Source: Phoronis australis (taxonomy: Eukaryota > Animalia > Phoronida). Taken from it: a DNA stretch of 64,000 nt. How positions within the stretch are numbered: position 1 is the stretch's first letter; every line of letters starts with the position of its first letter. The stretch spans positions 397,898 to 461,897 of the forward strand of contig NMRA01000014.1 of assembly GCA_002633005.1 (NCBI GenBank), read 5' to 3'. The position numbers and the translations under genes are program-made. The notes beneath the pieces are model-generated. The model searched no databases and was not told the DNA's origin. It saw only the letters and a list, made by a program, of their open reading frames with translations. Shown in pieces: positions 3,008-61,481 of the stretch.

Positions 3008-3173
3008 CTTTGGAGATGGCTAGTTCCTGTAACAGAGCCATGTACTCCAGTCGCTTGGGGTGTTCTGGGTTGTAGAGTGTGTAAGCATATGACACCAGTG
3101 CTGCAGTGTAGGAATCCAGAGTGGGCATTGGTTGAATATCCAAGCAGGAAATGGCACTGGTCACAGTTTCAGA
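3008..3173 (-). CDS. A2M: A2M-like exon 25 (...AISCL...[12 protein letters not shown]...)
   Basis: YTxALxxYAxxL helix motif; TAG/GTATG; last exon recognisable in the window. Confidence 0.92.
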
Positions 3174-6100
3174 CTACGAAAGGTAGATAAATATTATGTT
3201 AAAACAGAAAATGTTGTGAAGGCCAGATTCCAATACCAGTATGTAATGCATAACACACGATGTATTTAGTAATAAAATAAAAGAGACGTTTTCATTAATT
3301 TTGTTCCCAATGTGTTAATGCATTATTCAAAAATGGATTGAGCAGTGACTGAAAATGTTTAACGGAGAAGGACTATGTTATCATGACCTCAGCGACTGGG
3401 TTTTCCAAAAGACTGCTGAGAAATACACTATAGAAACAAATTGTGCCCAGAAACACACCATAATAAACGTTTGTGCCCAGAAACAAACAATTATTAACCA
3501 TTGTGCCCAAAAAGGAGTGTCCAGAAAGGAATCATAATTTGTTTGTGAAAAGCATCATGTTTCATTAATTTTGCATGTTTATGATATTATGTTAGTGATC
3601 CTCCCTGAAAATTACAATCCCACCTACTCCACGACATATCATATGCAAACCAGATCATTCAACTATTTTTAAAAACTTACGCTGGCGGGGAGCCCAGCTT
3701 CCAACATGGCAACCAGCACGTATGCTGTAAGTGCAGACTGGCTTCCCCCACTGATTCCACCTTGCATGTATTTACTGAGCACACGGCCCACTGACGGGAA
3801 GCAACCATTCTCCAGCTGATGTCCGATGAACCATGATATACTCTTGTTCAGCACCACTTCGTCGATGAAAATGAATGGTTTGGCCTGAAAATGGCAGACA
3901 GTAGCACAACGTGTAACCAAATTACTGAGTATGGAAGGAAAATTCTTGAAGAAAACAATATGGTGGACAGTCATCAGAGATTGGAGGGCCTTCAAGTGCC
4001 CATTTTTGTGAGCGACAGGTTTTATTTTTCCACGTAAATAATGCATCTCAAAAACAGCAAAAATGGCCACTAGGTGGTGCAAAATACCTCGATTCCATCC
4101 AAAAACGAGAGGATAGTGTCATCTCACCACAAAATGCCCAGATTCAAAATTTTATGAAAACCCAATGAGGACCTTTGAAAATATAGAAGAAAACGTAAAA
4201 CTAAAATTGCTACCAGGGTGCACACCTATAGTTAGATCCATTCGAAAATCGTCGTCGTCCGACGTCAACATCATATAAACACACTTCTTTAATTTAGTAA
4301 AGATCCTGCAAATGGTTTAGGAGATACGGCCATGGGAGAAAAAAAAACGAAACTGCCACTAAGAGGCGCCACAGTAATCGAAGTCATCAGAAAATCATCG
4401 TCACCAGTCCACTTCAGAGTAAAAACATACATGCCAATTTTCACAATTATCCTGAAAGCGGTTTGGTTGATAGAGGGGTGGACGCCGAAATACAGACGCA
4501 AAAACACTAAATATGGCCACTAGGGGGCGCAAACTCTACATCAAATCCATCTGAAAATGGAAAGATAGCGTCACCTAACAGAAGCCTGTACACCAAATTT
4601 CATGAAAATACATTGAGGGCCTTTGAAGATAAACACGTAAAAAAATAAAATTGCCACTAGGTGGCACAACAGTAGTCAGATCTGTCCGTAAGTCGTCGTC
4701 GTCATCATTATATAAATGCACTCACTAAATTTAGTAAAGTTTTAGGAGATATAGCCATAGGCTAAAAAAAACAAAACTGCCACTAGGAGGCGCCACAGTA
4801 GTCAGAAGTCGTCGGAAAATCATCGTCAACCTTGCTCTTCATAGTAGGAACTAACATGCCAATTTTCACCGATAATCACGCTTAGAGCGGTTTGGTTGAT
4901 AGCGGGGTGGACGCTAAAAAACAGACTCGAAAACAGTAAAAATGGCCACTAGGTGGCACAAACTACATCGAATCCATCCGAAAACGAGAGGATATTTTCG
5001 TCTCACTAATACTTGCCTATATATCAAATTTTATGAAAATATGTTTAGGACCTTTGAAGATACCGAGGTAAACGTAAAAAACTAAAATTGCCACTACGGG
5101 CACACCAGTAGTCGTATCCATCTGAAACTTCGCTCATGCCGTCTCATCCATGAAAGCAACACGGGTAAAATTTCATGAACATAAGTCAACTGGTTTTGGA
5201 GATAGAGCAGCGGACGCCGGATGCCAGACGAACGCCGCCCGGACGGACGGACGGACAGAGATGACGGCATAATGCATCCACATATAAAAATGTGGACGCA
5301 CAAAAAGAATGCAAAGGTTTTGCTGATCTTGCAAGGAAAGTTTTCCAATATGGCTTGGTCTTTCAGAACAGACACAGCGCACTTGTCAAAAGGTTTGTAT
5401 TGAACCTATCCCGTACAGACAGAGATCTTCTCTCTCAACACTGAGGAATCCAAATTTCTTCGAACACATGAAAACTGCGAATCGAAGACTAATAAAAATT
5501 GATCTTTGTTAAAAGCATGTTGCCAGGAAGCACATGCTACATACATGTACCAGTCATCGAAGACATTAGTCTTCGGGAACTACATGTATCTATTCACGAA
5601 ACGGGTAGCATCACATCGGCAAGAAATAAATATTGTCACTAATTTCCGAAAGTCTCTAATACAGTAAAACATGTTCGCCTTATTTTTAGGAAGAATTATT
5701 TAATTAATCATAATTGGTGTATTTGAAGTCAAAATAACCCACCGATACTGAACCCTTGTGCACCCTTACAGTCCCCCCCCGAATCTCCTGGAAAATAACT
5801 GGCGACTCACCGAGACAATTCTCTAAATGTTTTTTAGCATATGAGACCAACAAGTGCTAAATAAAACACGACCTGCTTTACTGCTTGTGTTAATTTCTTT
5901 AGATACAGTGCACACCTAGATCGTTACATTGCATTTACTCTGGCAAATGAATTCTGATGACACGCACGCACTCGGTCACTCACACAATACGAAGACGAAC
6001 TTCAAAACAAACCTCACGTGACAACAACATGTGTTACAGGGTACGATCTAGCGCAGATTTGGACTTAATAATTTTTTATGCAGTTAATCCTAACTCGACA

Positions 6101-9100
6101 GGAACTTAAAAATCTTAGGGACGCTATTTTGAAAACTTAGGGAGGACTTCGGGTAATTTGTTGAGGTGAAACTGTATTTTCATTCAAGAATTCAAGTTGC
6201 TCTATAGACGATCGCGAGGCAGCGACGCATCAATCGGCTAGTTTTTGCCCTGGGATTTCAGCATTATTTTCTGAAAAATGGTCGTAATTATACAACGAAG
6301 CTTGATAGCAATGCACCACAATTATATAGAAAGTCTGTCATAGGTTACAGATACGTCACAAAGCGTAAATTTTATGAATCCTAGCTTAAGATTTCACCTG
6401 TTTCGCAGACCGGGTTTTAACCGGCTCAGGCTATAATAAGCGCCCCCTTCCTGAAACATATTTTTCTAAGCGCTCTGGGTGCTTATTGGGGCAAATATGG
6501 TACGTCTTTTTCTGCCCTTGTAATATTCAACGTAACCACTCATGTTCACATCGATTGAAATTCATAATTACACTCAACACATAGATGCTGTTGCTATATA
6601 TACTTCATCAACACATGGAATTCTATATTTGCCCATAATTAAACTTATGAGCATGCCACGGCAAAGCCAACCAATGATCACTTCCTGTAACAGTATCATG
6701 TGACCTGGACTAACCTGGGCGAAACATTTGACGACGAAAGCAGTCAACCACATACTTCCAGAGTCATCACTCATGCCAAATGCACTGTAGGAACCATCAG
6801 GGTGTTTGTAGGTCAACTCACGCTGGTAACCTGAAGGGATGGAGTAGTCCACAAAATGCATTCAATAAACAGGAAATAAAGTTAGGCTAACAAACCAATA
6901 AACTTTGGCAAGAGTTTTGCCCAAGTTCGAGGGAGTTATGTCTACTATAGCTGATAAGCAAATTTGCAGCAAGTTCTTACTATGCAATGTCCAGAAAAAC
7001 TGTCAAAAAATTTCTGCCACAGTGACTATACTTTGACCAACACGCACATACTACATACTCCATAATAAGGAGAGTACTCGATAGTGAAAACAAGACAGTA
7101 AACTACGCCCCTTACTAGATTATGTATTTCGCCACAGTTTAGTCATTACTAGTATGACTTCTCACCTGATCTCATATATTCCTTAGCTTTACCCTCGATT
7201 ATCTCACTAGAAAGGCCTGTATTCTGCAGATACTGCAAGACAAAGATGTTGGGTGCAAAGCCGACCATGTTCTGCTCACCACATCCATATGGCATGCGCA
7301 GCAGGTTGTCTAGATTGGAGAGGGCTGGGCCCATAATGTCACCTAAGAAATGACAAGTGAGTGACAGGTGTGAGTCAAATGAAGCATTAGGGATATTACC
7401 AAGAATGTTATTTACGAACAAAATGTATCTCAGTGAAACTAGTGAACTTGACGCATTTGTTGGATAATTTCAAAAACTGGGGGAAACTGGCATATGCACC
7501 ATCACTCAGATTCGGAAAAACTGTTAGTAAGAAATGAGAAAGTAGCGATGACTAATTTTACAAATATTTTGTTGGACATTGAAATACAACTATTAACTCC
7601 GAAACATAAAACATGACCCAACTGCTCATATTTTCAACTGAGACCATTTCATGAATGTAATAAGCACCTGAAGACAATCTAGTACTGAGCGAAGACAGTA
7701 ACACCATGTTACAGGCTGGTCCAACTCACTTGATACTCTGCACTCATGAATTCAGTTAGACAGCTCAAACATACCAATGACTGTCACAGAGCCCCGTGCC
7801 GATCCATTGACAACATTAGAAGGTAGAGGGAGGTCAATTTCCTTGAAGTCAGACGTGTCCTCACCATCTGCGACAGTTAATACTATTTATTTAAACAAGT
7901 CAAGAGATGAACGATACAAAAGTAGCAAAACTATTTACAGCAACTGATATAAAGGCGATAGTAAGTGAATAGAATTCTGGTTTGACATTACACTAAAATT
8001 GAGACATTGAAAAAAAAGAGTGCAGGAGGTCTGGTGTCATTTGCAGAGCATCAAACATGCGCAGGTCTCATGGTTGGGCCTGTTGCACCAAACACCTGAA
8101 CTAAGAACACAAATGCCCCGTTATAGATCAACAGGTGCTTCGTGAAGGAAGTTTTCAAGTTAGTCAGTCTCCTTAAGAAAACCCGGCGACAGACGTTCCA
8201 CTTGCTGCAATGCACAATTTGGTGTAGGCATGTAACAGTGCCAACCAGTAGGTTGCTCCTTAGCCTATAAAAAGCTGAGCAAGACTCCACCACGTGTTTA
8301 AGGGTTTCAACTTCAACACTACACTTGGGACACACTGCGCGACCCCATACGCCCAATAACATATCTGTGTCAGGCTAGGTTACAGTGGTCTATCAAAATG
8401 CGAATGACTGTCTTATGCCCAATCTACCAACATGCCATAAGCATTCCCACTAAATAAGATTGCCCCAAACCCCGCCGATCAGGGAAAACGGTGGGGTTTG
8501 GCCGATTGAACTAGACCGTATTTATCCACCTTGGCTGTGTCGCGCTCAGCTCACGATCAAAGGGATCCTGCCAAGCTGCTCTATTCATCGAGTCACTAGC
8601 GAGGATAATTGGCTCCGCTCATGCGGATACCTTCAGCTGATTACAATCTAGCCTAGATGACTGTACCTTTATAGAGAGCATTTTACGTAGTTTTGAGAGT
8701 AATATTTGAAAAGAGAAAAAAAATGTTGGTACAACTTTGAATTTTTCAAATCGGCCCAGAATATGTGTGTTGCAACACTCACAATTACTTTCATTCGGCG
8801 AGCACGAATACAAAAATATAGGACCCAAGTTATAATAATATAGAACTACTCTGTATTTTACTTAGATTTTGGAACACATGCATTGCAATATTCAAAATAC
8901 AACTTTATTATACCTCTTGCAAGCTGTAAAACGACTTTGTTCAATTTCATTGTGCTCATTCCATTGTCATCCGTCAAGTCGGAAATTTCCCATTTCCCCC
9001 TCAAGAACATTTAAAAAAAATTCCCCTCATCAAGTCAAATAATTGCCCTCTGAATAATAAAAAATCCCCTTGTGGTTTTAAACTCAATCCTAAAAATATT

Positions 9101-12100
9101 GTGCTAAAACCCACTGATTTTAATCACGAGGCCTCCAGACCCCGGAGACGTCACAAACTGGTGCCAAATAGACTGGTTACTCTTTCATATTGAAAACACA
9201 AAACTAAAAGACAACTTCCCTTTGTTTGTGGCTCATTGGAACTAAAAGAAGTCCTACAAGAGAAAAAATGTGGAAACACAAGCAACGGAGCATAGAAACA
9301 CACAGGAACTAGAAAATGTTTTTGCTGAATAACTTGCAGTGCACTCCTCTCAGAAGCTAAAGCACACCACATTTAACAGCTAGCAAAACAGGATTACTCA
9401 CTAGTTAATTATATATAGATGCAGAGACTGGCCAAAAGTGAGATATATCAAATAAACACAAAAGAACAGCAACACGGAGCGTTGAAATGCGCCCACCAAT
9501 GCCGCGCAAATGGTGTGCATCTAGGGTTGTTCGTTTCATAAAAATAGCCACCCCGACACTAGTTGGCGCAAAAACGTCCAATTCATCTGAAAACGGAAAC
9601 ATGCTATAGCTTCATTCATAGACAGCTATTTACCAAATTTCATAAAAATTTGTCAAGGAACTTCAGAGAAACAAAGGAAAACAGAAAAAAATAAAATTTC
9701 CACTATGGGGCACAGCGTTCATTGTATCCGTCAGAAAGACGACATTGTCTGTTGTTAGCTTCCTATAAATATAATTACTACATTTGATAAAGATCCTGCA
9801 GTGTGCTCAGGAGATGCAGCTATGGGTGAAAAACAAACAAAACTACCACTAGGAGGCGCCACAGTCGAATTCGTTATTGTCAACCCTCCTTTTCACACTG
9901 AGAACATTATGCCTATTTTCAAAAACATCCTTAGAAAGGTTTGGTTGATCGAGGGGTCAGGATGCCAAAAACAGACTTGAAAACAGGAAAAATACCACTA
10001 GGTGGCGCAAAGCACCTCAATTCCATCCGAAAACGGGAGGATAGCATCACCTCACCAACAGGTGCCTATATTTCAAATTTTCTAAAAATCCACTGAGGAC
10101 CTTTGAAGATAAGGGCCACACTGGGGGTCAGATCCGTCTGAAAGTTGTTGTCATCTGTTGTCATCATCATATAAATACACTTGCCGAATTCAGCAAAGAT
10201 CCTGCTAACAGTTTAGGAGATACATCTATGGGTGCAAAAAACAGAACTGCCACTAGGAGGTGCCACAGTATTCGAAGTCATCAGAAAATCGTCAGATTCG
10301 AATACATGCCAATTTTCACAATCGTCCTTAGAGCAGTTTGGTTGATAGAGGGGTGAACGCCAAAAAACAGGCTCCAAAACAGGAAAAATGGCCACCAGGT
10401 GGCGCAAACTATGTCAAATCCATCTGAAAACCGGAGGACACGTGATCTCACTAATAAATACCTATATGTCAAATTTTATGAAAATGCATTGAGGACCTTT
10501 AAAGATACAGAGGTAAGCGTAAAAAACTATTTGCCACTAGGGGGCACACCAGTAATTGAATCTGTCCCATCCATAAAAAGAACATATGTGCCAAACTTCA
10601 CGAATGTACATCAAAGGTTTTGGAAAAAGAGGAGAGGATGCCAGACAGACAGATGCCGGACGGAGATGACGGCATAATGCGTCCAGATATGTTGGCGCAT
10701 AAAAAAACGCCTCGAAAATTCTGGTTAGAAGGTACACGCATCTTTCCCCTCATGAACAACCATAACAATGACATATCAAAGAGCGACACTGACCCAACTC
10801 TGTCACTGAATGGGATAACAACCTAGTGACTGAGGTTAAAGATTATAATCTCCCAACACCCAACTTTCTACACTAATAACTTATTCTTGTGTCAGACTGA
10901 GGGAGGAATGAGAACCTGTTTTATTGCCAGGAAATAGGTTGGTTAAATAACCATCTTCTAAGGACAATATAATATAGTAGCTAACAACAGTTTCGAGTTA
11001 AATGTTTACCTTTCTCTGGACAGAAGAAGGAGCTAAATGTGTACTCTTGAGGAAGGCCCTCGGGTTCTACCAACATAGGGCGAATAACAGCATCGGTCAG
11101 ACCAGTCAGGATGCTCATTGGTCTACGGCCACAAACTGTTTGGTTAGCTGCAGTACGAGCCTGAACAAAAATAAAAGAAATTTAATCAACGGTTTTCTTG
11201 CAAATGACACACAATTGGTAATAAAAATAGAATTACAATTGATGATAGAGAATTAAAATATTTTTCTCAGTTTCACATTAAAACAACATCAGCACCAAAA
11301 ATCTGATTAAAGTCTTAGCAATCACCATGTAATCAAACGTATTTGAGAGAAGAAAAAACTGAGTTACTTACAGCAACTGTGATGTTAACATTGCCAAGTT
11401 TCATGGGAATAATACGGAACTTGTGTGTCATCGTTTCTTGCCCGCAGACACAAAGGTCAACTGAGTTAACCTTGTTCAGTCTGTGGTAGCCTCCATCTGG
11501 ACTCCTCTTCAGGCGCAGATTAATCTACACAACGTTATCAAAATGTAAAGTGACATAGTTTTTGTTATTACCTGGTATCATACAGAGACACTCAATGAAC
11601 TTGAACCATTACTTCCACAATTTGTTCATACATCACTTACATCATACACAAGACCATATTCACATGACTACTCCTGTCTTTCAAACATGCTCATGAAACA
11701 ATGATGAAAAAAAGTTGATATAAACGGCAGTGATTGTGATGGATTAGGTATACCTAATTACAGGTTACCTATCCAGGATAACCTGTACACTAACAATGAG
11801 TCACCGGGTTTTTTAACTTACCGCCAGACATTCATCCAGATAGTTAAAAACAGATATCAACACAGGCACCTTCTCTCCACGAATGACCGAGTATGGCAGG
11901 TTGAAGGAAGCAAAGAAAGGTTTGAAAGCCTTGAGGGTGGTGATGGGTGCTACACCCAGTCCCACGGTAGGGTTGGTGCAGAAAGCACTCCCAACCCACT
12001 CAGTGATGGTATCAGGAACTTTCTTGGGCACTGCAAGCTCACCGCTCGCGCTGGAAATGACGAGGTTCATGATAACTAACTTAAAAGATAGATTTACAAA

Positions 12101-15100
12101 TTAGCGAAAGCAGCTTAATGCGGCAGGCCTTAACTTCGGAAATTATGTAAAACATTGATTCTATGTTAAATATGTCTACATGTAGCCAGAATTCTTCATT
12201 ACTGTTCAAACAACCAATATCACCAAACTTTACCAGACTGCACAGTGAAGTGGCCATTTACATAGCGTGAAATTTGCACCGCATACTTTAAGTTAAACTT
12301 TGTTCAACATGTAACATGTAATTTTCAAGTGAAATTGCGAGTATCCTGGGCCTAGATGCTCTATTAAACAATAAATAAAATTAAATGAATCTCAAAAATT
12401 AACTGATAAAACGGGTATAGTTGAAGAAACTTCCATCACAATGCACCAATGCACAACATGCAGACACGACACTTCCAAGACACTTTTGCACTTAGCTCCA
12501 TGTTTGCCAATATTGGAACTCATGCAATAATGGCAATTAAGATGGAATTGTCAGCAAGGATGAACACAAACAAGCTACTCAACAGAAAATTGCAATTTTG
12601 TTACATTTTTGATGAAGTACAGAATCAGTAAAATGAGGGCAGAGCCAGTCCAGCTCATTATCTTCAGTTGCAAAGATGAACTCGCACGTTGTGAGAATAA
12701 GTTTAGTGTGACAGCGGGCCTTAATTATGATACTTCTTGTCTGAAAAAGGTTATAAGTAATGTGATATCTGTCTACCTTAAATTAAGTTGAGTTTGACAT
12801 AGCTACATTTCTTCTTTCAAACGTAATTCTTTTTTCATCGTGTTAACGCTTAATTTCTATATTGTTTTTGTTGACACACCTAACTGTCAGAAGACGGATA
12901 GGAGGGGGTGACAACACCTTCATTTATTGATCTAAAATACAAGTAAACAATGTATTAAGAGGTTTGACACAGTTGACCAAAAAATTGCAAAGCAGCCATT
13001 GTTTTATGATTCTGACTAAACTAACAGATAAAATATTTGAATCTGACTTTATTTCAAATATCTCATTTTGTTTGACTTTATGTACTTAGAAATAAAACAA
13101 CAATAATGGCTTCGATTTATTTCTATACATATATATTCTAATTTTCGTCAAAGAGTCGTATTCTTCAGAGGATCTGCATCACCTCATTTAGTTTCAGAAT
13201 TATTTTTCATAAAATGTATAGCTTTGGCCAAAAGGTGCATTTGTTTAGGAGGATGCACTGGAAGAACTAATTTGGTGGCTTGTCCTTTTTTTTGGAAAAT
13301 TCGCAGTAGGTTAAATACAAAATATGAAAATTCAACGATAAATTGAAGCAGATCGAACCTCTTTAAACACAAATAAAACAAATACACAGCACCAAGGTGA
13401 TTCTTCGTTGGGTGTAACAAACATAAGGCGTAACAAATACAGAATAGAAATGGCAAGAAAAGACAAGTGATAGAAAAGAGCAGTTACCCAACAGGAAGTA
13501 AGGACCACAACCAAGATTCTGGAAAGTAGTGTCGCAGCTCAGAGGGAGGTTTGGAGGTCAGTGGTGGGGGGTAATCCTCAGAGAAAAAGGGAGGTCCTTT
13601 TTCAAGCAGGAGGGGAAAGTCACTCATGGGTGAAGAAAAGTCCTCTGAAAGAGTTAAGCACACATACCATGCAAGAGATAGAAACATAAGATGCGAAGCA
13701 GTTTCAGCAAGTCTTTCTGAGACAGTGTGAATATGTATACTTTGACTTTGTTCTCAAAATCTGCTTTAAAGAGACCTCTTGGTGAGAATAAGTCATTTTT
13801 AATTTGCAATAGTGCAAATTTGAACACATTAGCTGCGCAATTGCAGTTGAAAGCACTGCTGCTGAGCTACCTCTGACGTGTGAAATAGTTGAGTACTTTA
13901 AATGTATGTAAAAGGTAAGCACCGGAATTGACTTTAGTCAATGTCTGGCAGACAATGGTTAGAATTGCATATTTGTAATAAAATCACAAAAACTGAAAAC
14001 TTTTTTTTGTTTTGACACAAGACTAACACATGCAAAATTGAAACCAAAATGAGTTTTGGATCCAACTCATAATGTCCTTTTTAATAAATCGAACAAGAGC
14101 AACAAGGAGTGTTGAAATGCACCCAAGATAAACTGCAAATGGTGTGCTTCCATGGGTGTTTGTTGGAATAATTAAAATGGCCATTGGAAGATGTACAACG
14201 TGTCAAACCCAACTGAATTGAGAAGGTGGCATCTTCTCTGTAAAATACAACTATTCACCAAATTTCATTTAAATAAGCCAAGGAACTCTTAAGATATAGA
14301 GGGAAACGTAACAAACAATTGGCCCAAGGGGGAGACAGCTACAGTCCAATTGGTCTAAAACTAATCTTCATCAATGTCTGTAGAAGCCCATTTGCCAAAT
14401 TTCGCAAAGATCCTTCAAAGGGTTTAAGAGATATGGCTGTAGATCCAAAAAAGCAAATTTGACCCTAAGGGGCGCCAGAATAGTCAATAATCAACATCAT
14501 TCAGGCTCTTTGCATCAGAAATACAACCGTCAATTTTCCCAATCGTCCATTGCTTGGTTTGGCAGACAGAGAGGCAGACGTCAAAAACATATTAAGCAGA
14601 ATTTTTTTAAATAGCCACCAGGTGCAGCAGAAAACATCAAACCTGTCCAAAAATGGGAAGGTGTCATTGTCCCCTTGATAGAAACCTATTTGCCGAACTT
14701 CATGAAAATACATTCACGAAACACTCAAGATAGAGAGGTAAACATAAAAAAGGTAAAAAAGTTTGCTACTAGTGAGGCACAGTGGTATTTGGATTAGTTT
14801 GACATTTGTTACCATTTGTCGCCGGCTCCATACGAACACACCTTTCAAACTTCAAAACACAAAATCACCACTAGGGGCGACACAATAGTCGGACCCATTC
14901 GAAAGTCAACTTCAGTCATGGCTTTCTGAACAAGAAGACATCAGATTCTGTAAATTCTCATAATGCTCGTTAAGCGGTTAGCAGATAGGGAGGATGGACA
15001 CCAAGAACAGATGCAACAATACCAAAAATCAAATCTGTCTGAAAATGGGAAGGCATTGTCGTCTTCTTAATAAACCTATTTGCTGAACTTAATGAAAATA

Positions 15101-15916
15101 CATTACTGCAAAAAACGTTTTGTCCTTAGGGGGACAGTGATATTTGAATCAGGTCGACACTTGTTGCTGTTTGTCGCAGCACCATAGGAATACATCTTTC
15201 AAATTTCATAAAATTCCTTTAACGCGTTTAAATATTCAACCGGACAAAAATATGCACTAGGGGGCGACCCCGGCACAGTAGTTGAACTCATCCGAAAGTC
15301 AACTTCAGTCACGATCTCCTCATTGTGACCACATCTGTAATTCTCATAATGATCTTTTAAGCAGTATGGCAGATAGGCATGTTGACGAAAGGAAACAAAA
15401 ATGGCCATCAGATTGCGCAGAAAACATCAAATTTGTCCCAAAATGGGAAGGTATTACCGTCTACTTAATAGAAATCTATTCCCCATATTTCATAAAAACA
15501 CACTAATATTGATACCCGAAGAAACGTAAAAACAGTACTTTACCACTAGGGGGATCAGTGGATCAGTTTGAAACTTGGTACAGTGTGTCAACGGTTCCAT
15601 AGGAAAAATCTTTCAAATTTCACAAAGCTCCTTCAAAGGGTTAAGGAGATTTGGCCGCAGATTAAAAAATGCCACTAAATGGTGACACAATGGATGTACT
15701 CCTCTGAAAGTCAATGTCAGACATGGCCTTCTCATTACCAACATATCTGTAAATCTTTATAGTGATCAGTATGTCAGATAGAGTGGCAGACAACAGAAAA
15801 CAGACGCAAAAATAACAAAAATGTCCAAAAGGTGGCGAAAAAATCATCGCCTGTCTCTTAAATCCATTGTTTCAGGACTTAAACAACTGAGGCTGTGTAG
15901 ATGTTGTGTGTGTGGT

Positions 15917-15978
<62 letters not shown>

Positions 15979-18900
15979 TTCTTGATGAATACAACAGCCA
16001 CGATCTCTGCAACAGAAAATCTAAACATGTTGGAAGCATGCGAACGCCAATGAACGTGCCAAAAGGTCATGATGGCTGACGTCCTCTGTAGAGCAAACGG
16101 GCAACGAACTTGCAGTTCTATTATCTATATGCACAACTGTCATGTACCCACTGTGTTACCTACCAACTGACTTAACCCAGTTTAATAGCTATTTGTTGTT
16201 AATCTAATAATTTGAAGCAGTACAGACAGAAAATGAGTGATGGTGATGCTTGTTTTAAGTGGTGAATACTTTAATAAATAGGTCGCGAGGCCATTCAATT
16301 GTGTTGCATTAGTGCTGTCACACAATGTAACACCACACATTTAAACCAGATCAAGAAAACATTGGTCAACGAAAGAAGGCGTGTAAATTGAGATGTAATA
16401 TACCACTTTCAGGAAAATGTATGAATGTTCAACAACACAAATATTTTAACAACACAACAATCACACTTCAGAAAGACAAGCTGCTTGGCAACATTCACGT
16501 GTCAGAGAAATAAGTGACAAGAGTAGAAAAACACACAAGGAAACCAAGTAGGCCTATTGCAGCAGTCCTAGTCTTTGTCAGTTGATCATTAAATGGCACT
16601 AAGCAGCATATAGAACGAAGATAGAGTAGCATAAGCTGAAAGCAAACTGATAACATTGGCAAGGAGAGCTATATCTCAGCCACATACCCTACGACTTCCA
16701 GGTCCCACAGCCAGGTTTCAGGAAAATAAGAGCGGAGGTTTACTGAGGAGGCCTTTGGACTTGCTGTATTCGCCACAGAATCAACAACATCAGCATCCTC
16801 AACTGCAACAGCCATAGGCTCAGGTTGCTCAACACCAGGCTGACCTAAGACAGGCAAGACTCAACGACTACAATACACTGAATATCTTCAGAGTAGTCAG
16901 TCCTCCTTCCTTTCCAACCAAACAAGCATTCTATGCTTTTATTTCTCATGATCACAATTCTTGTCTTATGAAAATCTCTTCTAATGCACAGCGATTCCGT
17001 TCTTAACTCAGGTATCTTTGATCACAAATTTTTCATTTTGTAAGTAAAATAGGTGACTTCAGAACAGCTTTGAAATAATTAACAGTTTGCTATTACTTGA
17101 GACCAAGGTCCACAAGTTAGCTTGTCAAGGCTCAATGCACGTCATTTTGTGCAAGCGCATAGCATGGTTTTAAGGAATAACGAACTCTTAGTTCAATGAC
17201 AACCCAAAATTCACTTCTCATCTAAGTAAAGAACAAGTTGAGATCAACATAATGGTGATTGTAGTTTAAATCATGCTTGCTTCTAGAACAAGAAATGCAC
17301 TTATAACCAGATTTCTTCACTGATGAACCTCAGTACAGACAGTTTTGGTTGAAACGTAAAACTCTATGCTGCTACTGCTCTACACAAGGGGGTGAAAAAC
17401 CATGATTCATGAGACTGTCAAGTGCGAAAGTCTGACAGGAAATGCATCTTGTGACATCAGTTCACAATGAAGACAGGAAGACTAGCTACTGAGATGATTT
17501 TGATAAAACTAGTGTGCACTACTTCTATCTTGGGAACCTTGTGGCTGGAGGAATGATTGAACTTGTTGTAGTTTGAAGTTGATAGAGAATGAAGAAGCAG
17601 TACGCTTTGTGCCAAGTAGATGTTCCTTGAATTCACAAAATGTTCATTTCTTCACTGTCCCATGTGCACTTAACGAAATTAATGTAACGATCCTGACAAA
17701 GACTGGGTGAGCTGATGCCGAGGCCAGTATTATTATTATTACCCAACATGATGTAAATCCCACAGCCACGTTTCCGGAAAGTAAGATCGTAGATTCACCC
17801 CAGGAGCTCCGGCTCCAGTAACGGTCTTCAAGTTTACGCCATCGACGCCTGGCATGCCCCAAATAACACAAACAATGTTAAGTCAAAAATCTTATAAAAC
17901 ATAACAGTGCTAACAGCAGTTCTCTGAGAACATTTTAATAATGTTTAGATGATCAGTCTTCAGTAAAAAAACTACCTATAAATGAAAATCTGTACCTAGT
18001 TACATGGCAATTATTTCATTCAGTATTTTTTTTTTATTCTCTGAAAAAACGATGCTTGGCTCGTCAGAGGACTTCAGAAACAACTGTACAAGATATAATT
18101 GTGTACCATAGGTCATGTGTCATGACCAACATATGACCCAAATGAAGACTGAAGACTAACAATTTGTATTGATACTGTACAACATCTCTTGTGTCAATTT
18201 GCCCAGCCAACATATGGAGCCGAAACTTCCCAGAAAATAACCAGCAAAGAGAAAGTCAAATCACACTTGTTCCCCAAATCCTGTAGGAAAAGGCTGCTTT
18301 GTTTAGGACTGGCTATCTGGTGTCACATGACCATGTAATCTATTTGTCTTAATGAAGTCATTCACACACTTAGATCGCCTGGGATGCACGTAAAACAGAG
18401 CACGGAGACCTCAATATATGGTCATTTGGTATCAACTTTGAGTCAAGTAGAGCCATTTGTATAAATGCTCAATTGAGTTTAGTAAGCAATGTGCCTTTTA
18501 ATGATAGGGTACGGCAGAAGCAAAATTGTATGGAGCATTACACAACAATCCACAGCAACAAAGAGAGTCACATAAGCAAAATAGTCGAATTGCATAGTAA
18601 ATAAGCAATAGGTAAAAACACACAGTCATGCAAGCAAACACCAGATAGCACTCTGGACAATAGCTTTTTTAAAGTTTGGTTAACCCAAGATTGTTTGGAC
18701 ATTTTTTGCAGTGGCATACAGCCAGTGTGACAAGAGATGAGTGGACAACTAAATACATGTCCCACTAAAACAGTGTCAGTTTCGTTAATCAATTCACAAA
18801 GGTCAATAGTCACCAAGTCTGTGCAAAACTACCAATAATCTAGTGATAACTGACATTAGATTACTACAGTATTGCTAACAACACATTTTGGCATGTAAGC

Positions 18901-21900
18901 TATGGATTATTTCTGGACAAACAACCTGCAACAACATGATTGATCGAGAGTTCTTCCTGTACATACCTCTATGAAAATCGGGTCAAGGAAAAAAATTTGA
19001 CCAATCAGATCACTGACAGCTGCATATGCAATGCCCACATGATACCAATCTGCCAACATTTGTGTGTTAATTCACCATTTGTGTGCAATCAACTTTAAAT
19101 AGTATCATTATGAGGTAATTTGCGGTGTTCAAAAACCGATGTAACATTTGGTGCTATTGCTAGAGAGCACCAATGCAGACTTCATGACCAAGGACCAAGA
19201 AACTGTCCAGTGTCTGTGGGTTAACTGAATTTGTACAGAGATGCGACAGGCAAGCCTTTATCCAATAAAGCACTGGGACTCCTACCCAATAATGTTGAGC
19301 TCCCAAAGCCAGGTTTCCGGGAAATACGACCTTAGATTGGTAACAGGGGCAACGCTCTCGTCGACGACATTAAAAACTCTTGACCTACCCCGCTGTGGAC
19401 CTTATACAAGCAAGATAACAAGTTAATTGTTATCACTGATTAAAAATCACGGTTTGACACAGTCCAATATAAAAAGATTATATTCAAAAAGATTCAAGTT
19501 TTCTCTAACTTTGTAATTCCGGTACTTTGTTTCAAGTAAACTGACAACCATTTTAGAGCACCTATACCTATTTGTACTGACCTCTTGCATAGGGCATTAT
19601 TGTGAAGCGCCTACATGGACGGGTCTGCAAAGTTAGGTCTGTCATCACAACCTGTCCTTCCTCCTGTAACATTATGGTTAAGATTACCATTAGAGAAATA
19701 TATCTTTTTCATTAATACATTGCGAACAATTTGTCCCGTCAGCACGCCATCTTTTTGGCCACATCATGTGACCTAATAAATATAAGTACGAAAAGATTTC
19801 TGCCCCAACCGGATGGCGTTTTGCCAGGACAAATTGTTCATTACTATTACAGGTAACCTGTCCAATAGTAAACACAGGGTGCTCATCAAATTGCTCCGCA
19901 TATTGAAATGTGCGACACTAAACAACCATGCCCAACATTTTCCATAGTGTAAGCAAAAAGACAGTAGTCACCAAAGGAGGATATGCTGTTGGCAGCTCAC
20001 TTAATCAAGCTAATCTAACCCACAGAATTTATGAAGTACCTCAAAAGCCTGTAACGAGTCATAGTAGTTGGACTGGTCAGGGAACCATATGGATCTTTTC
20101 AGTCGCATAGGTGACTCATCTTCGTCAGCATCTTGGACGGACTCACCACCATCAGAATCGTCCTCACCTTCACCATTGCCAATCTCAGCACTGACATTAT
20201 CATCTTCTGGTTCTTCAGAGACACCCTCTGGTCTATTGTCGACAGGAACTAGTCGTGGCCGGTTGGGGGTGAAAGGTACTGGTCCTGGCCTCTCTGGCTC
20301 TAAAGGAATATATTAAAACCAACATTTAATGAGTGGAACTAAACAATGCATAACTGGATTTGTCTTGAGGACTTGACAGGAACCTCACAGGTCTCACCCT
20401 TCACTGGCTTATCTACGCTAATTTGATAAGGCTTTGTACAGTCAAGCGTTGCGGGTCATAAAAGAGATAATGATACATACAGCTGATGCAACAAGCAGAA
20501 CTATAACTCTTATTTATCGGTGCATACTCACAGGAGAAATTAATGATTCAACTCTTTCATACCACATTATCAGCTTGACATGGCCAATACAACCGTTAAT
20601 TAACCCACGCATTTAGTTATTCAATACGCGTTGAATAACATTTTGGCGGGAACCTGAGGCTGGTTTCGAACCTGCTTCACCCGATTTTCGAGATGTCGAC
20701 TTAACTGCTAACGTCATCGAAAGTGAAAATAGAACACTTAAATGAGGACGTGCAATATTGACATGTTCAACAAACGGCATTGTACGGACATTTAGACACT
20801 ATGAAAAATAAGACGCACAATTTCAATAAAAAAGTATTTTTAATTCAGTAAAATTTATCTGTCACTTTCTCTCAGTTGTAAATTATCGATCTCCAGTTTG
20901 AGTTCGGGCAACGTATAGTCAGGATCTTTTGACTTGGACATTATTCCAGTGGTAACCTTCTTTAGCACACGAAATTTTCACGGTGAAGCTTAACATGACA
21001 AGATGTGTAGTAAGCTAGACTAGTTGCTTAAAACTTATTTTACAGATTCGCTTTATTTTTTAATCTATTTTGTTTAAATTTTCAAGGGGTCAGGTATACC
21101 CTGGAAGGCCCCATATTGTAATATTGCAACACAACATTTGATAATCTATAATTAACCCCCCCCAATCACATTCCATTGGTTATTGGTTGTGTACCCTCCA
21201 AGGCCCCATTGTTGCAGTAATGCTACACTGTGAGGGACCTCTCTTGACAAATGAGCTATTTGAATTAGAAATTAAAGATGTCTGCCGCCACATTGTAAGC
21301 TGTCCTCTGAGCAAAAGGCAAAGACATTCTCTACTTAGTCCAGGTAAATTCATTATTTCAATGTAATGGACTCAAACCATCAAATATCATGTAGTTTACT
21401 GGGGTAAACCTTATGTTGAATAGTGTTTTGTTACCTAAGTGTGCTTGTCCTGAAAAACCATGTTGCATATTTGCAACACTGGGCTCTGTCAGTGTCATCA
21501 CCAAGCCAACACTCGTGCTATAGTATTCCGCCTGACCCTAGGTAGGGTTAATGCTCACTTATGCTAATTTTTTTTAACAAAAGCGCAGTAGTTTGTTTTT
21601 CCTTTTGAGCAGTATATTTATTCTTCTTAACAGAACGTCAGTTTGAATTGTTAGATTTTAATTTTTGTTTATTTGAAATAAACAATTTGCTTTTTTGTCG
21701 TCTCTGACATCACATTCAACATCATGATCGTATATGATCTCAGCCAGCGTCTTTATGAACTTATGTTATTTTTCAAGATTTTTACTTCGAAACACATGTA
21801 ATGTAGTACCATAATTGAATGGTCAATCGATTTCCTGATTAATTTTCAGATTCAAAACGACAAGGAAAACCCTTGAGTTGGGTAATAAGTCACATTTGTT

Positions 21901-24900
21901 AGATGGAGATGAGAGGGACTTGGAGGGCTTAGTTAGTGATGATGATGATGAAGGTTGCCCAGCAACATGCTGGCGATGACAAAAGCTCTGACAGTGACGA
22001 TGAACCACTATTAGTATTCGAGCCAATCGTATCCATGGGTGCAGTCTCAAAAATAAGGAGGTTCATTTAATTGAAGAAAAAGTTGATATCAACAAAAACA
22101 TCTGCGTTGCGCTCTAGTATGACAACTGTCATTTCACCTTTGGTGCCAGTCCAACTGATAATGTCAGAATATGGGACAAGAGCTCTAGGGCCCATTTCTA
22201 AATTCCAAGGCCATTTTGTGTGCAGCCAGTGCAATACATTTATGGATGGTGTCGACCTGTTGGATGCTCTGTCAGCAAAGTACAAGTACGGCATGACATC
22301 TCGAAGCAGGTGTCTGTACCTTCTTTGGCACATTATATCCGTTGTTGTTGTCAATGCCTGGCTGTTGTACCAAAAATTTGTGCTCTTCAAAGCCCGAAGA
22401 TGAGCTCATGAAGCTGAGAACTTTTCAAGCCCAGATTGAGACATCACTGTGTCAAGCTCAAAAGCGAGGCCGGCCATCGTTGGATGAAGTTAAGTCGCCA
22501 AAGCCTACACCAGCAAAGAAGACAAGAAAAGCAGTTGTTCCGCATGATGCCAGCTACAATAATGTTGGTCGCAGACCCATAAAAGTTGCTAAATAGGTTT
22601 TTGCAAGTACTGGGTTGATGACATACTGAAAGTGCGTGTAAGAAATGCTTCACTTCACAAAAAAACTTTTCGACTGTATCACATTTAGTTTTTTACGACT
22701 AAAGTTTAGATGCAACAGACAGTGTGAATCACTGGCCCATAAAGATCTTTCAACACATTGTGTTGACTTCAATGCAGGAATAGTATGAGAACTAACTTAA
22801 CTTAATTATTAGTATATTTTACTAGTGTAACAAACTTAGTAATCTGAAACTGAGCAGAAGGAAATGCTGATAATTAGATTAATTGTAATATAAAAAAGTG
22901 TTTGATGTGATGTTGTTTTGTAGTGAATGATTTTCACAAATAAATGTCTAGTAGATAAACATGGGACATTTGCTACTATCCGGAGCTCCCATTGTTGAAA
23001 AATTGCAACATTGTATAAAATGAGGTCGCTGAGTGCAATTTTTCTAGTGACCTATCTTCTAGTAATATTGAGCTCAAAAATTTTAAGTAGTTTGAACATC
23101 TGGGCCTTCTGGGGTGGTTTAAGTAAAAACATTAAGAACCACTCAGCGTTTCGTAAAAGGTCACGACCTCCGACCCCGGGCCTCTGACACAGAAAGTAGG
23201 TACAAAAGCCGAGGGCTGTCGAGAAAGGTAGATAGATTCATCGCAATGTTTATCAATCAGAATGTGGTATAAATACATTATNAAAGGTTTCGTTAAAATC
23301 GACCGAGGGGTTATTTTGCTATGAATGTACCTTTCTTAAAAATGGAATTTTTACTTAAAAAAGGTTTATACGTAAAAATAATAATGACAAATAAATACAA
23401 AAAGTATATTTATATTTCCTGATCTTTGCTCTTTCAGAAAATATATACTTTTACTAGTTGACAAAGCTTAGTTTTTTTGATATACGAGTTAGAACAGAGG
23501 CCACTAAATAAGGTTTGAAATAACCTTAAGTAAAAACATTAAGAACCACTCAGCGTTTCGTAAAAGGTCACGACCTCCGACCCCGGGCCTCTGACACAGA
23601 AAGTAGGTACAAAAGCCGAGGGCTGTCGAGAAACGTAGATAGATTCATCGCAATGTTTATCAATCAGAATGTGGTATAAATACATTATTACATGTTCTCA
23701 GTCATTATTTGGTAGACAATTCTTCAAAAACCAACTCGGGCTCTAGATTACAAGGGATAACCAATACGCCATGTAGTAATATCAACCATCTGACTATCCA
23801 CTTGTTTTGGGAGACTTAATTCTCATACCTGTGTGCTCAATGATGATGCGCAATTTTTAGAGCTGTGTTCACAATAATCAACAATAAAAGTGGAGAGCAA
23901 ATATGTACCCCTTGTACTTTTTTCCAGTTGTAATTTTGAAACGCCTAATATTTCAGATGCGAGCAAAATAAAAAATACATGGCCATTCTCACTTTCAGTA
24001 ATGGAAACACTAACTACTCACTACATTGCAAAAACAAACAAAACTGCCACTAAGAAGCGCCACACTAGTCAAAGTCGTCAGAAGGTCATCGTCAGTCGCC
24101 CTCTTCATAGTTACAACATATATGTCAATTTTCAAAATCATCCCTATAGCAGTTTGGTTGACAGAATGGCAGACCCCAAAAAATAGACTCAAAAACAGTA
24201 AAAATGGCCACTAGGGGGCGCAAAGTAAAGTACCTCGAATCCGTCCGAAAACAGGAGGATGGCAACATCTCAGTAATAGATGCCTAACTGACAAAGCTTA
24301 TGAAAATCTGTTGAGGACCTTCAAAGATACAGAGGTAATTAGCGTAAAAAACTAAAATTGCCACTAGGGGGCACACCAGTAGTCGGAGAGATTCGAAGTC
24401 AGAGAGATTCGAAATTCGTCATCATCCGTTGTCAGCTTGATAGGAACACATCCGCCAAATCTCATCAAGATCCTGTGAAGGGTTTAGGAGATACAGCTGC
24501 AGACGCCAGACGCCCAGAAAGAGATGACAGCAATATGCGACAACATAATAAATATGTCGGCGCATAAAAATGTAAACACGCAAGTCATATTTCTTCAGAC
24601 AGCTCTTAACATCGATTCATCAGCTTCACGGGTAATAAAATGTAATTGGCCGAATAGATCTGTGGTTTGCTGTTGAGCCAAGACTGTCCTGAGTTGCCTA
24701 ATGTGCCTACTCTGGACTGTCCCTCACAATGATTTAATGTTATGCCATCAAATCAATCTGAACACAACAGCCTTGCTCAAGTACATGAATCATGAGGCAG
24801 TATAGCCATTGACTTTAAGGTTTATGAAAATCACGAAAAAGTCTGGACATGACTTAATGTCATGCACTGGAATAGGTAACGTGCAGTCATTGACCTAAAG

Positions 24901-27900
24901 CTGAAGCTTACATTCAAATACCTGAAAAGAACCCAATGAAACTTGACTGCTCTCTTGTCTTTGGGGAAAGGAGCTGACGTCTTCTGATAAAGATTATTTT
25001 CAAGTGAATGGAAAATCCTCCTTATAATCCTAAATCTAGCTTGTCTTTTGACAAAAGACTGGTTTGTGGGAGCTTTAGTTCATACTTACCAATCGGTGGT
25101 AATGTGGGCTTGGGCAGTTTAGCAAGCTGTTTATCGCAGTAGTCATTATAGTCGTTGCTCCACCTACTGCCGATATTGTACTGCTTTAGCTGTTCGAAGA
25201 TACGAGCTATTGTCAGCTGGTTGCTACTGCGCAGGATATGAACACTCTTGTCAACAACACCGACAGCACACAGAGAGTCAGGGCTAGCCTTCAGACGAAA
25301 GGTGGTATCACCACCAGGGTGCGCTGTTTGCTCACCCAAGCTCATGTCAACCTGCAGGAACACGTGATGAGATGTATTATCTTATACATTCCACTACGAG
25401 CGGTGTTAAATTCAGATCACGTAATTATTTATTTTAGTCCAGGCAAAAGGGTAATTTTAGTCCAGAAAAAGAGGGTGTGCCCCTTTTGAGAAATCCCCAG
25501 AAGCATTGCACAGTTTACTTGAAGCTGGTAAATGCACGAGTGCATGCATGCAATTTCTATTGTGACAGTTTACCTTGTTTGCCAGGCACTTCTCCACAGT
25601 AAGCTCAGTTGAGTCAGCCACAACTTCGCCATCAGGACGGGTGTAATACACAACTAGGCGGGACAGCGGTGCCATCTCAGAGGTTACACGGAAACGAAGC
25701 TTGACACTGCTAACGTGAGGCGGCAGGGTAATGTTGGCATTGGTGTCCTCAATGAAGAAATATGGAACTGAAATACAAGAAAAAAATAATAAAACCAGCA
25801 CCAACAACAGAATGAAAATACAAAATTATTCATTAAATAACAACAGCAAGATCAAAATTAATGAACAAAAAGGAACACAACACCTTACAACAGAAGGCAT
25901 TGATATAAGCCAACTGTGTGAATAGTTTTCCTCCCAATATATTTTGAATGTTCTTAAACAGAACTACTCCTCAACTCACAGATAACATCACGTCTATGAC
26001 GGCCAAGCACTGATGCAGTGTGCGGCACAATGGTTTCTTCCACAGCAGGTTGACGAGGGTCTTTCTCATTCTCCTGGGACACGGTGTCAGGGGAACTTGG
26101 CTGTCTATAGTCATGGTGTATGAAACGGTGGTGCTTGTGGCCACTGTGCACAATATTACCACGTGACATCACCTGCAAAGTATGTAGGAGTGGCATCAGG
26201 ACACAGAAGAACAGGAGCTCAGAATTCACAATGAGCAACTAGTGAGACTATGGTCCAGCCTGCTTTCTACAAGCCACATGCAACACAGTCCAAGAAAAAC
26301 TCCCAACACTGGTGAACAGGTCTATTCTCGATCTGTTCATGAAACCAATGATTCGTTCTTCTTTACCAATGTGGAGAATCTCTAGAGCCTCTCGATTTGT
26401 ATTGCCAATTTTCTTTGAGGTTTATAAAATTCGTTTACTGTGTTGAGCTGTTAAGTGTGAAACAGTGCAAAGTGACACAGTGCAGGGTCATCATTATCAA
26501 GCACACATTTACACTCACAACTTGAGTCCTGGCAACACAGCATTAGTTTGAGACAAGAATGTGGAGTGCACAAAATGGGGCAAGTACTTGCAAATTTAGA
26601 TTACGTTTGAAATTTTTTTGGACATGTCATGATTACAATACATTCTGAACTAAAAGGCAAAGCAATTCAGTCAGTAGATATGGCGTGGAAACAATCAGCC
26701 TTAAATACCCCATTGCGCAAACACACGCGACATGGTTGTTTCTACATTGAAACAGTTTTGCAATACACAGATGGTATGGGACAAGATGGTCAGGATAGAG
26801 TTCCTCTACCTCAGAAAATGGATATAAATTTGACACCACAGTCATTGTGTCAACTTGCATTTACTACACAGATGCTTACACCTCATCAATTCTTTCTGGG
26901 TCAACAAACAATTATTGAACTAACAATTTCAGGTATTGCAACACCAAGCCCACAATATTTCAAATGACACTCATGCTCTAAAAAGAACACAGATCCTACC
27001 TCATAGTTGAACTTGAAGTCTGTGTTTGCCTCGGTCGTGTACGCAACAGTGATCTCAACCTCCTCATCACAAAGGAGAGTACGGTGCAGTGGATTCACCT
27101 GCAGGAAGCTTCCTGAGGGTGAAAACCACTGCTTGACATGGTGGTTGCCAGTGGGCATGTACATGCGCAGGTAGTAGGGGTCATCTTCGGTGTATGTGTA
27201 ATTGTACTCTACAGCTCTGGCCTAGAATAGCAGACATGGCACAGTCATTGGATCAAAGCATTTAGTGATTACAGCCAATCAAAACACAGGTAGGATATTG
27301 AATGAGACCGTTCTCTGAAAAGAAGAGTGCAGACATTATCCTTATTCTCAACAAAATCAAACAAATCTGGAAGGGATTAAGACAAAAGTTAGGCAAAAAT
27401 AGCAAGTTAGGTTCTGACTCATTTTGAAACCTTTGCCTCACAACTGGCATAAGGTAATGCTGGGTAAAAAAGATCCCCATCTGTTGAAAATATCTGAAGA
27501 AAGGCAGAATGCTATTGTCATTAGAGATCCTATTTGCCAAATTTCATGAACATCCATCACCTTGGTACTTACTAGATATTTAGGCACACACAAAGAAAAT
27601 CATAGGTGGAGTGAGGGAACACTGACAGTAGCCAGACTAGCCTCTGACTCCATGACAGCGCTTTCCCGCTCAGTGACTTTACCAGATGTAGAAGGATGTG
27701 AGCGTGTGATAACATCTAGCTTTTTTGTTAACTGCCAAGCACAGCCTTTTGCCTGGTATGACAACACACAGGCCAATTATCTACCAGGCTTATTACAGAC
27801 CAGGCGTGAACACAGCCAAACCCAGAGCAAATTGGTAGGTTCGGGAAGAATAGATTGTGGTAACTTCGGTTGTAGTTGGGCAATTTTGGCCATTCAAAAA

Positions 27901-59848: not shown

Positions 59849-60819
59849 TTAAGTTAAGGTTTGACAAAGAGAGAATTAATGGAGTTTCTGCGTGATTCAC
59901 TTAGGCTTCGATTATAATTCACATCTTACCAGCAGCTTCTGTTTTTTCATCGTCACTAAGGTTCCATTTTCTTTAAAAAATGAAGTAAATTTTCTCCATT
60001 GCACAGTGGAGCAGACGACGGAAACGGAGTCGTAGTGCGCAGCGCCACTGCCGGTCGCCTGGATATCGCGGGAGAACCTACACTTAGCCATAGTTCCGTT
60101 ACGAATGCGCCGTGTTCCGAATTTGACACTTGAAATTGGATCTGAGCCCCCCCCCAACACTAAAACTGCACACATTTAAATATTTTTTCATCCGTATCAT
60201 TTTAATTACCGGGGCAAATTAATAAACTCAACCTTTTCTTATGCTTTTGCTGTTTTATTTTTTGCGGCAGCCAATGGGGGGGGGGGCAACTGTGGTTCCT
60301 TAGACCGCACAATTTGTAGCTGAGCGAACCTAAGGGCGGCCGTTTATGCAAAAAAATCAAAATATGTATTCAATTCCATTTAATGAACTCGATGCCAACT
60401 GTATGGCAATTCAATCCTATTTTGTGTATTCAATGCTAGTACATCAATTCAATCTACATTCGTCGATTCCATATCGTGAACTCAATGCTGTTTTGTATAT
60501 TCTATCCTGTTTACTGACTTCAATGCTGTTTAGTCGATTCTGTTTCGTCTATCCTAGCGGCCTATGGGTGAAACCAGGAGGAGATAACCAGTCCTGGTTA
60601 TCTCTTCCTGGTGAAACTAATAACTTCATAAATTCTATCCTGTCTTGAATTCAATCCTATTTTTGTTAGCCTATAGACGAAACCAATGTGTCGCATGCGT
60701 TTGAGCTCCCGCCTTTGTCTTTGCGTAAATTCTGCTGTCAAAAGCGAAGCAAGAATTGTTTCTGACAATGTCACAGAGAGAACTGCTGTCAAATATCGTT
60801 GGTCTTTTGACCGATGCAG

Positions 60820-61481
60820 TTGGCCAGCTAATAATGTTATTCTGGACGGTGAAGAGATTGAAAATGTCTCAGAATTTACTTATCTGGGGAGTGTCGTTAG
60901 CACAAGTGGGGGAACTGAAGAGGACATTAAAACACGCATCAAGAAAGCTCGTCAGGCACGCGCTATGCTAAAGCCTGTATGGCGTTCAAAGATCTACTCA
61001 CTAGTCAAGTCAAAGTTAAGAATCCTCAACTCTAATGTGATGTCTGTTCTTCTTTACGGTTCAAAGACGTGTAGACTTACAAAAACATTGGTCAACTGTA
61101 AATAGATGCCTGTGACAAATCTTGCAGATTAAATGGTAGGATGAAGAGATTTGGCGAAAAACTGGGCATGAGACTCAGATAAAGTGGCGAAAATGGAAGT
61201 GGGTGGGGAACACCCTCAGAAAAGCTGACAAAAGCATCACAAAACAAGCCCTGTCCTGGAACCCGCGGGGAAGTCGTCGACGAGGCAGACCAGTCCAAAC
61301 GTGGAGGAGGACAATGGAAGCCGAACTCCGTGAAACCGGATACAACATCAAAGATACTATAAAATCTTTGACAGCACGTAGCAAATGAGACAGGTGGCGA
61401 ACAACAGGATTCGATGGCGTTCGGTCACAGAGGCCCTATCCACCACGGGGTAGCAAGGGTTTTAAGTCAAGTAAGTCAAGT
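60820..61481 (+). mobile_element. 5'-truncated RTE-clade LINE, 3' end
   Basis: IENVSEFTYLGS..DIKTRIKKA..VLLYGS and WKWVGNTLRK..ALSWNP.G.RRRGRP..TWRR, followed by an AAGTC/AAGT repeat tail. Confidence 0.85.

Follow-up and report, generated by a model that had tools for sequence, protein, structure and literature searches.

The stretch analysed here, 64,000 nucleotides (nt) of the Phoronis australis genome (contig NMRA01000014.1, positions 397,898 to 461,897; hereafter the window), holds the greater part of one gene on the minus strand, and this gene is an invertebrate alpha-2-macroglobulin (A2M). Between its constant exons 16 and 18 lie four tandem cassette exons, 17A to 17D (Table 1). Each is bounded by AG/GT ends, is entered in phase 1 and left in phase 2, and closes with the conserved tail R-x-Y-F-P-E-[TS]-W-L-W; a fifth copy of this tail was not found in the 64-kb window. 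A preliminary description of the locus had proposed that these are alternative exons for the bait region, the segment whose sequence is reported to decide which proteases an A2M traps (PMC8267569). The exon ends, the phases, the shared tail and the RNA joints from exon 16 to every cassette bear this out, and the cassette structure is confirmed as real and expressed.

No indexed record that contains the region is marked as RNA; the RNA evidence consists of raw reads from three stranded libraries labelled as the same species, of which about 18-19% of each library was covered. Joints to exon 16 number 2/7/1 in the three libraries for 17A, 1/3/4 for 17B, 5/9/3 for 17C and 6/2/0 for 17D. Among the best 15 of 19 joints, the upstream joint to exon 16 is thus present for four of four cassettes and the downstream joint to exon 18 for one of four, namely 17C (7/5/7 reads). 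The reading frame is open when any one of the cassettes is included, whereas the form that skips them and all 11 multi-cassette combinations meet stops. Besides the downstream joints of 17A, 17B and 17D that are missing there, two observations count against so tidy a picture. Four reads of one library (with two starts) join 17C to 17D out of frame, which is leakiness. Additionally, a contig of run X1 continues from 17A across its donor into the intron, to 19200; this contig (19200-19400) may stem from intron retention, from pre-mRNA or from a short transcript that stops after 17A.

The 24-exon model comprises 1281 codons without a stop when 17C is used, and it is collinear with three A2M homologs. 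Exon translations matched Pfam A2M_BRD (PF07703), A2M (PF00207) and TED_complement (PF07678) above cut-offs. The gene has an MG scaffold with a linker-bait insert in MG6 and lacks the anaphylatoxin domain, and the bait sits between a Cys and an R-x-x-F-P plug. Serine at the catalytic position is described as usual in protostome A2M (PMC7016707), although this criterion is not strict, as His is found in some homologs labelled A2M. In a quick IQ-TREE search of 50 rows the window protein fell among spiralian A2Ms, adjoining bryozoan and nemertean records, and four iTEP/CD109 rows formed a 99% branch that excluded it; this tree had no C3 rows, left out Priapulus for its short overlap and comes from the quick search, the careful one being unfinished. 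No record compared exceeds 56% identity over the constant C-terminal part, and a query with exon 14 for close relatives returned a single distant match. No candidate for exon 1 was found by a simple scan of the window for an ATG followed by a hydrophobic stretch; the numbering 16 and 17A-D fits because one unfound first exon is counted.

Two furin-type motifs were seen in the gene. RHRR ends exon 12 (26172-25980), where a better GTGAGT donor lies 12 nt past the modelled one, and RLKR follows the long acidic insertion in exon 15. Because homologs have basic clusters at similar places, the two motifs suggest a mature protein of more than one chain.

Table 1. The A2M gene and the exons discussed, in window positions
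Feature	Position	Strand	Evidence or remark
A2M gene model	3008..49419	-	3' end followed as far as 3008; exon 1 not located
Exon 15, constant: Pro-rich, acidic linker insertion; RLKR furin-type motif at end	20040..20299	-	Sequence and RNA joints
Exon 16, constant: linker end, conserved Cys of TRPC, first 10 bait residues	19582..19663	-	RNA joints to exon 15 and all four cassettes
Cassette 17A, 115 nt: bait 30 residues; three extra Arg at +14, +16, +18 after Cys	19286..19400	-	16-A joint: 10 reads and one contig
Cassette 17B, 106 nt: bait 27 residues; Gly/Ala/Val/Thr-rich, one Lys	17743..17848	-	16-B joint: 8 reads
Cassette 17C, 157 nt: bait 44 residues; Ala/Val-rich, acidic	16688..16844	-	16-C joint: 17 reads; C-18 joint: 19 reads
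Cassette 17D, 157 nt: bait 44 residues; Pro/Phe/Leu/Tyr-rich, as acidic as 17C; three P-x-x-hydrophobic motifs; Glu-Asp directly after constant Arg+10	13488..13644	-	16-D joint: 8 reads
Exon 18, constant: PF00207 (A2M)	11822..12050	-	Pfam
Thioester exon: GCGEQ intact, PF07678	7166..7342	-	Pfam and motif
Thioester-domain exon: Ser at catalytic position (His in CD109/iTEP homologs)	3681..3884	-	Homolog comparison

Chemistry of the four baits

Following the usage for human A2M, the bait was taken to begin right behind the Cys and to extend through the fourth residue before the plug Arg, which gives the lengths in Table 1 with the first 10 residues constant. Cleavage sites were called by simple, generally known P1 rules, and sites before Pro were excluded. 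The earlier observations on residues hold: the variable parts cannot be aligned (none of the six pairs scores above shuffles, p 0.25-0.84), 17A has 3 Arg in 20 residues against none in the 85 residues of the other three cassettes, 17B has 12 A/V/G/T and its one Lys in 17 residues, 17C has 6 D/E in 34, 17D has 10 F/Y/W/L/M and 9 Pro in 34, and exon 16 supplies RRF and YAR. The constant first 10 residues include three Arg, Phe, Tyr, Met, Ile and Ala.

From these residues it had been proposed that the chemistry of the four cassettes is complementary, with trypsin-like, elastase-like, glutamyl and chymotrypsin-like proteases each assigned to one isoform. The composition of the variable parts is indeed heterogeneous (G = 40.1 over six classes, permutation p = 0.001; p = 0.003 over 20 residues). 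This heterogeneity is lost when 17D is removed (G = 8.6, p = 0.72) and is kept when 17A, 17B or 17C is dropped (p <= 0.003). Quartets of unrelated A2M baits match the heterogeneity of the four in 3.6% of cases (36 of 45 baits parsed), and with a second null of mostly invertebrate baits (40 of 40) 0.6% of quartets reach it; 17A, 17B and 17C alone are matched by 74% of unrelated-bait sets, and 17D stands apart even from unrelated baits. Tests of single classes gave p = 0.006 for Arg in 17A, 0.0014 for A/V/G/T in 17B and 0.0006 for F/Y/W/L/M in 17D, values that are post hoc because the classes were taken from the earlier finding itself.

The predicted sites overlap across isoforms. Counted as constant plus variable for A, B, C and D, R/K sites number 3+3, 3+1, 3+1 and 3+1, F/Y/W/L/M sites 2+1, 2+1, 2+1 and 2+8, and A/V/I sites 2+5, 2+4, 2+12 and 2+0; there are 1, 0, 2 and 3 Glu sites not before Pro, and 2, 1, 5 and 6 D/E sites. 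All four isoforms hold predicted sites of all four P1 classes. Only Arg is unique to one cassette, 17A, yet exon 16 gives three Arg to every isoform; D/E, A/V/I and F/Y/L/M are common to the isoforms. Two assignments were rejected outright. A glutamyl-protease role for 17C fails because 17D is equally acidic (6 of 34 D/E in each; 17C against the rest, p = 0.34) and has three Glu sites to its two. An elastase role for 17B fails because 17C has three times its elastase-type sites (12 A/V/I sites in 17C and 5 in 17A, to 4 in 17B).

Judged by predicted sites, then, 17A (Arg) and 17D (aromatic, Leu and Pro) are the only distinctive cassettes. The four-way complementarity is half right as read from the sequence: it stands for 17A and 17D and falls for 17B and 17C, and the division of one isoform per protease class is not seen, since P1 classes are shared. 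The weaker claim that the isoforms differ in spectrum keeps its plausibility, because the bait sets which proteases are trapped and 17A and 17D add distinctive sites, although no class can be mapped onto B or C. The contrast that had been drawn with a single promiscuous bait, as in human A2M, is weak because 35 of 36 single homolog baits likewise carry all four P1 classes.

Alternative cassettes in other animals

We compared 15 hand-picked cassette sets, taking database isoforms, which are gene models. The sets are not independent, as they include two from Mytilus, four from Branchiostoma and two from ticks, and sets from Pomacea, Haliotis, Ixodes, Haemaphysalis and D. silvarum and a B. belcheri hybrid were omitted. 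The layout seen in the window, about 8-16 residues after TRPC followed by alternatives that run through R..FPETW to the next Gly, is common to it and to records of Mytilus (four cassettes), Littorina (three), Patella (two), another record set (three) and Branchiostoma (2 x 2). A recognisable match of the variable parts to those of the window was not seen in these records, no search aimed at it having been made. Branchiostoma differs in that the equivalent of exon 16 is swapped too. In Tubulanus only the first half of the bait is swapped, with five variants, and in chiton and tick records it is the middle that is exchanged. The tick cassettes are short, optional and combinatorial, whereas those of the window contain the plug motif and, to judge from the reading frame, would be used one at a time; related tick records resemble the window in having cassettes of distinct chemistry.

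The constant part retains R/K and F/Y/W/L/M sites in all 15 sets. Four of them, namely the window, Tubulanus, Dermacentor and one B. floridae pair, are more heterogeneous than unrelated baits at the 0.05 level. As read from these sequences, cassettes are thus chemically distinct in some lineages but not as a rule. Orthologous cassettes are 64-83% identical in Mytilus, against 14-40% between paralogous cassettes, and 61-80% identical in Branchiostoma, against 7-35%; between the same species the scaffold is 94-97% identical, as compared with 61-83% for orthologous cassettes. The cassettes are therefore kept, yet fast-evolving. The amphioxus A2M records P0203, P0205 and P0209, together with members of their clusters, show two independent cassette pairs conserved in three species, and they seem well suited to a dN/dS analysis. 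Tubulanus (P0012, P0123-P0126) has basic, acidic and hydrophobic first halves, the clearest chemical contrast outside ticks.

On one account the cassettes are largely neutral, duplicates kept for the plug tail whose disordered 5' parts drift, and the isoforms would act alike because the shared segment would be cut first. The rate of cassette evolution relative to the scaffold is what this account expects, 17A, 17B and 17C differ no more than unrelated baits, 11 of the 15 sets fail to beat the null, and the human bait is reported to be replaceable wholesale by Gly-Ser (PMC8267569). We nevertheless judge it unlikely. All four cassettes are spliced in at similar levels, orthologous cassettes keep their character across Mytilus and Branchiostoma species, 17D stands out even among unrelated baits, and in human A2M added sites are described as adding targets (PMC8267569).

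How the bait isoforms may trap proteases

The relevant biochemistry comes from human A2M and A2ML1. Replacing the whole human bait with Gly-Ser is reported to abolish cleavage; a single Arg in such a blank bait gives 60-80% of wild-type trypsin inhibition, MMP2 inhibition runs from about 40% to 100% (wild-type level) by site position, and engineered sites at 703/704 worked best (PMC8267569). Any break in the bait frees the R-x-x-F plug from its channel (PMC9352918), and bait length and site position are described as influencing native folding and inhibition (PMC9352918, PMC8267569). In A2ML1 a TEV site at bait residues 700-706 (+6 to +12) triggers conformational change and conjugation (PMC9156758). 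The bait is disordered in solved relatives. The conserved cassette tail is this R-x-x-F plug, which explains its conservation, and Tyr+8 and Arg+10 of exon 16, mapped by position, would lie within the zone that is productive in A2ML1. What follows Arg+10 is set by splicing, being Gly in A-C and Glu-Asp in D. Acidic residues after Arg slow trypsin, and 17D may for this reason be the weakest trypsin bait. The early part of the bait is conserved in its chemistry. Of 40 homolog baits, 37 have an aromatic residue between +4 and +11, as compared with 3 that have one among their last eight residues, and 36 have R/K within +1 to +10.

We consider it reasonably probable, on the predicted sites, that the four isoforms trap overlapping sets of proteases with graded efficiency instead of one class each. 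In the mRNA the constant start of the bait is joined to one of the four alternative second parts, and, going by the biochemistry of the family, a cut anywhere in the accessible bait would release the R-x-Y-F-P plug, upon which the protein would collapse on the protease. Exon 16 would provide baseline capture of trypsin-, chymotrypsin- and thermolysin-like enzymes in every isoform. To this 17A would add stronger capture of Arg-specific enzymes, while 17D would catch more chymotrypsin-like and MMP-type enzymes and may weaken the shared Arg+10 site through the Glu-Asp that follows it; 17B and 17C would be small-residue baits differing mainly in length (27 vs 44) and acidity. The set would thereby widen the range without a four-way partition and without a glutamyl-specific isoform. 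Capture is expected to be graded rather than divided because the predicted cut sites of the shared segment are common to all four isoforms and because just one variant differs clearly in chemistry.

Several points weigh against graded, overlapping capture. The site calls behind it are predicted P1 sites combined with family biochemistry. Arg697 of A2ML1 (+3, the third bait residue) is reported to be uncut though it lies within the bait (PMC9156758), which raises the possibility that the shared RR at +1/+2 is silent, and the kept early aromatic and basic residues could mark a structural anchor and not a cut site. Joints of 17A, 17B and 17D to exon 18 were not seen among the best 15 of 19. Finally, with only four of 15 cassette sets, the window included, above the heterogeneity of unrelated baits at 0.05, drift of a loose linker is possible.

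The same observation on Arg697, which is described as inaccessible (PMC9156758), and a structural role for the early motif lend themselves to a strict or near-strict partition, in which the bait residues from exon 16 are protected, cleavage happens within the cassette and the isoforms are class-selective. The Arg residues of 17A at +14 to +18 coincide with the best engineered human sites, 703/704 (PMC8267569), records of nemerteans, chitons, amphioxus and ticks again show basic cassettes beside acidic or hydrophobic ones, and the Tubulanus (0.010) and Dermacentor (0.004) sets beat the unrelated-bait null. Even taken alone, however, the cassettes overlap, each having at least one basic, one F/Y/W/L/M and one D/E site; 17D equals 17C in acidity, 17C exceeds 17B in A/V/I, and A, B and C are indistinguishable by class, while in A2ML1 a site placed at +6 to +12 does work (PMC9156758). 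A strict partition, which would hold only with exon 16 shielded, seems to us quite unlikely. A broader version of it has a small chance of being correct: the basic and aromatic start of the bait would be a shielded anchor, and the cassettes a selected palette (Arg-rich; acidic or Arg-free; aromatic and Pro-rich) that arose at varying exon positions in ticks, nemerteans, chitons, bivalves, amphioxus and this animal, giving class-selective traps that could be switched by tissue or infection.

A further account attributes the cassettes to tuning, either of length and site position, with consequences for trap stability and the access of large proteases, or of deployment by tissue or challenge against endogenous cascade proteases. 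The bait lengths do fall in two groups, 27-30 and 44, and the reported effects of length and position on native folding and inhibition agree with it. Isoform joint counts vary among the three libraries, if weakly (permutation p = 0.024, 43 reads), and for scallop TEP and shrimp A2M, regulation of variants by tissue or pathogen has been reported (cited in PMC7016707). The reads are few, though, and the samples undescribed; tuning is moreover compatible with graded, overlapping capture, and it leaves the Arg cluster of 17A and the aromatic load of 17D unexplained. As the explanation of the cassettes we find it rather improbable.

Other features of introns and flanks

A search for pairing between an RNA docking site and selectors gave no shared duplex that surpassed shuffles (the best was matched by 5 of 12 and by 11 of 60), in a comparison made without the introns of relatives, and the inverted-repeat list of the region was unremarkable as a source of docking sites. 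Intron 15 holds an inverted repeat with 35-nt arms (19724-19839), and the intron between 17C and 17D is filled by copies of a dispersed repeat and a GT microsatellite (14000-15900; 15904-15986). All three elements attract reads from elsewhere.

The intron between the exons at 31907 and 29222 contains head-to-head open reading frames (29787-31197) whose domains are THAP (E 4e-15) and P2RX7_C, the latter at cut-off; a DNA transposon has probably inserted here. Broken open reading frames at 22067-22596, of which a single frame was scanned without a Pfam match, resemble a piggyBac-type transposase. Upstream of the A2M gene, 60677-61435 holds a retroelement-like fragment with DUF6451 (E 4e-9).

Comparison with known systems

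It is a long-standing assumption that splicing of the bait broadens the protease range of invertebrate A2M, and in the literature searched, from which subscription journals were mostly missing, we found no isoform-by-protease measurement. The gene in the window is a clean four-way natural experiment in this respect, with one scaffold and four expressed baits, two of them of sharply different chemistry. These baits are directly testable in the published engineered-A2M system, and a positive result would make the standing assumption a measured fact on splicing-based immune diversity.

Like the window protein, human A2M and A2ML1 have the thioester and the order Cys, bait and plug, and they are the best PDB matches for exon 18. 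As described, they differ in having one bait per gene and Asn or His at the catalytic position where the window protein has Ser (PMC8267569, PMC9352918, PMC9156758). The trapping mechanism proposed here is drawn from them by analogy.

As a sequence finding, the gene adds one further lineage to a known pattern. Tick A2Ms likewise diversify the bait by splicing: IrAM of Ixodes ricinus is reported to have seven bait variants and TAM of Ornithodoros moubata four, and the variants of IrAM are said to increase the spectrum of targeted proteases (PMC5438962). A wider protease range through bait splicing is thus already proposed for tick A2M, as it is for shrimp and snail A2M. In the snail Biomphalaria glabrata, BgA2M is described with three bait variants from alternative exons 17-18, and BgTEP2 with 12 tandem mutually exclusive exons that have a conserved C-terminal part (PMC7016707). 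The window differs from Biomphalaria in having four cassettes and in belonging to another lineage, and BgTEP2 is an iTEP and not an A2M.

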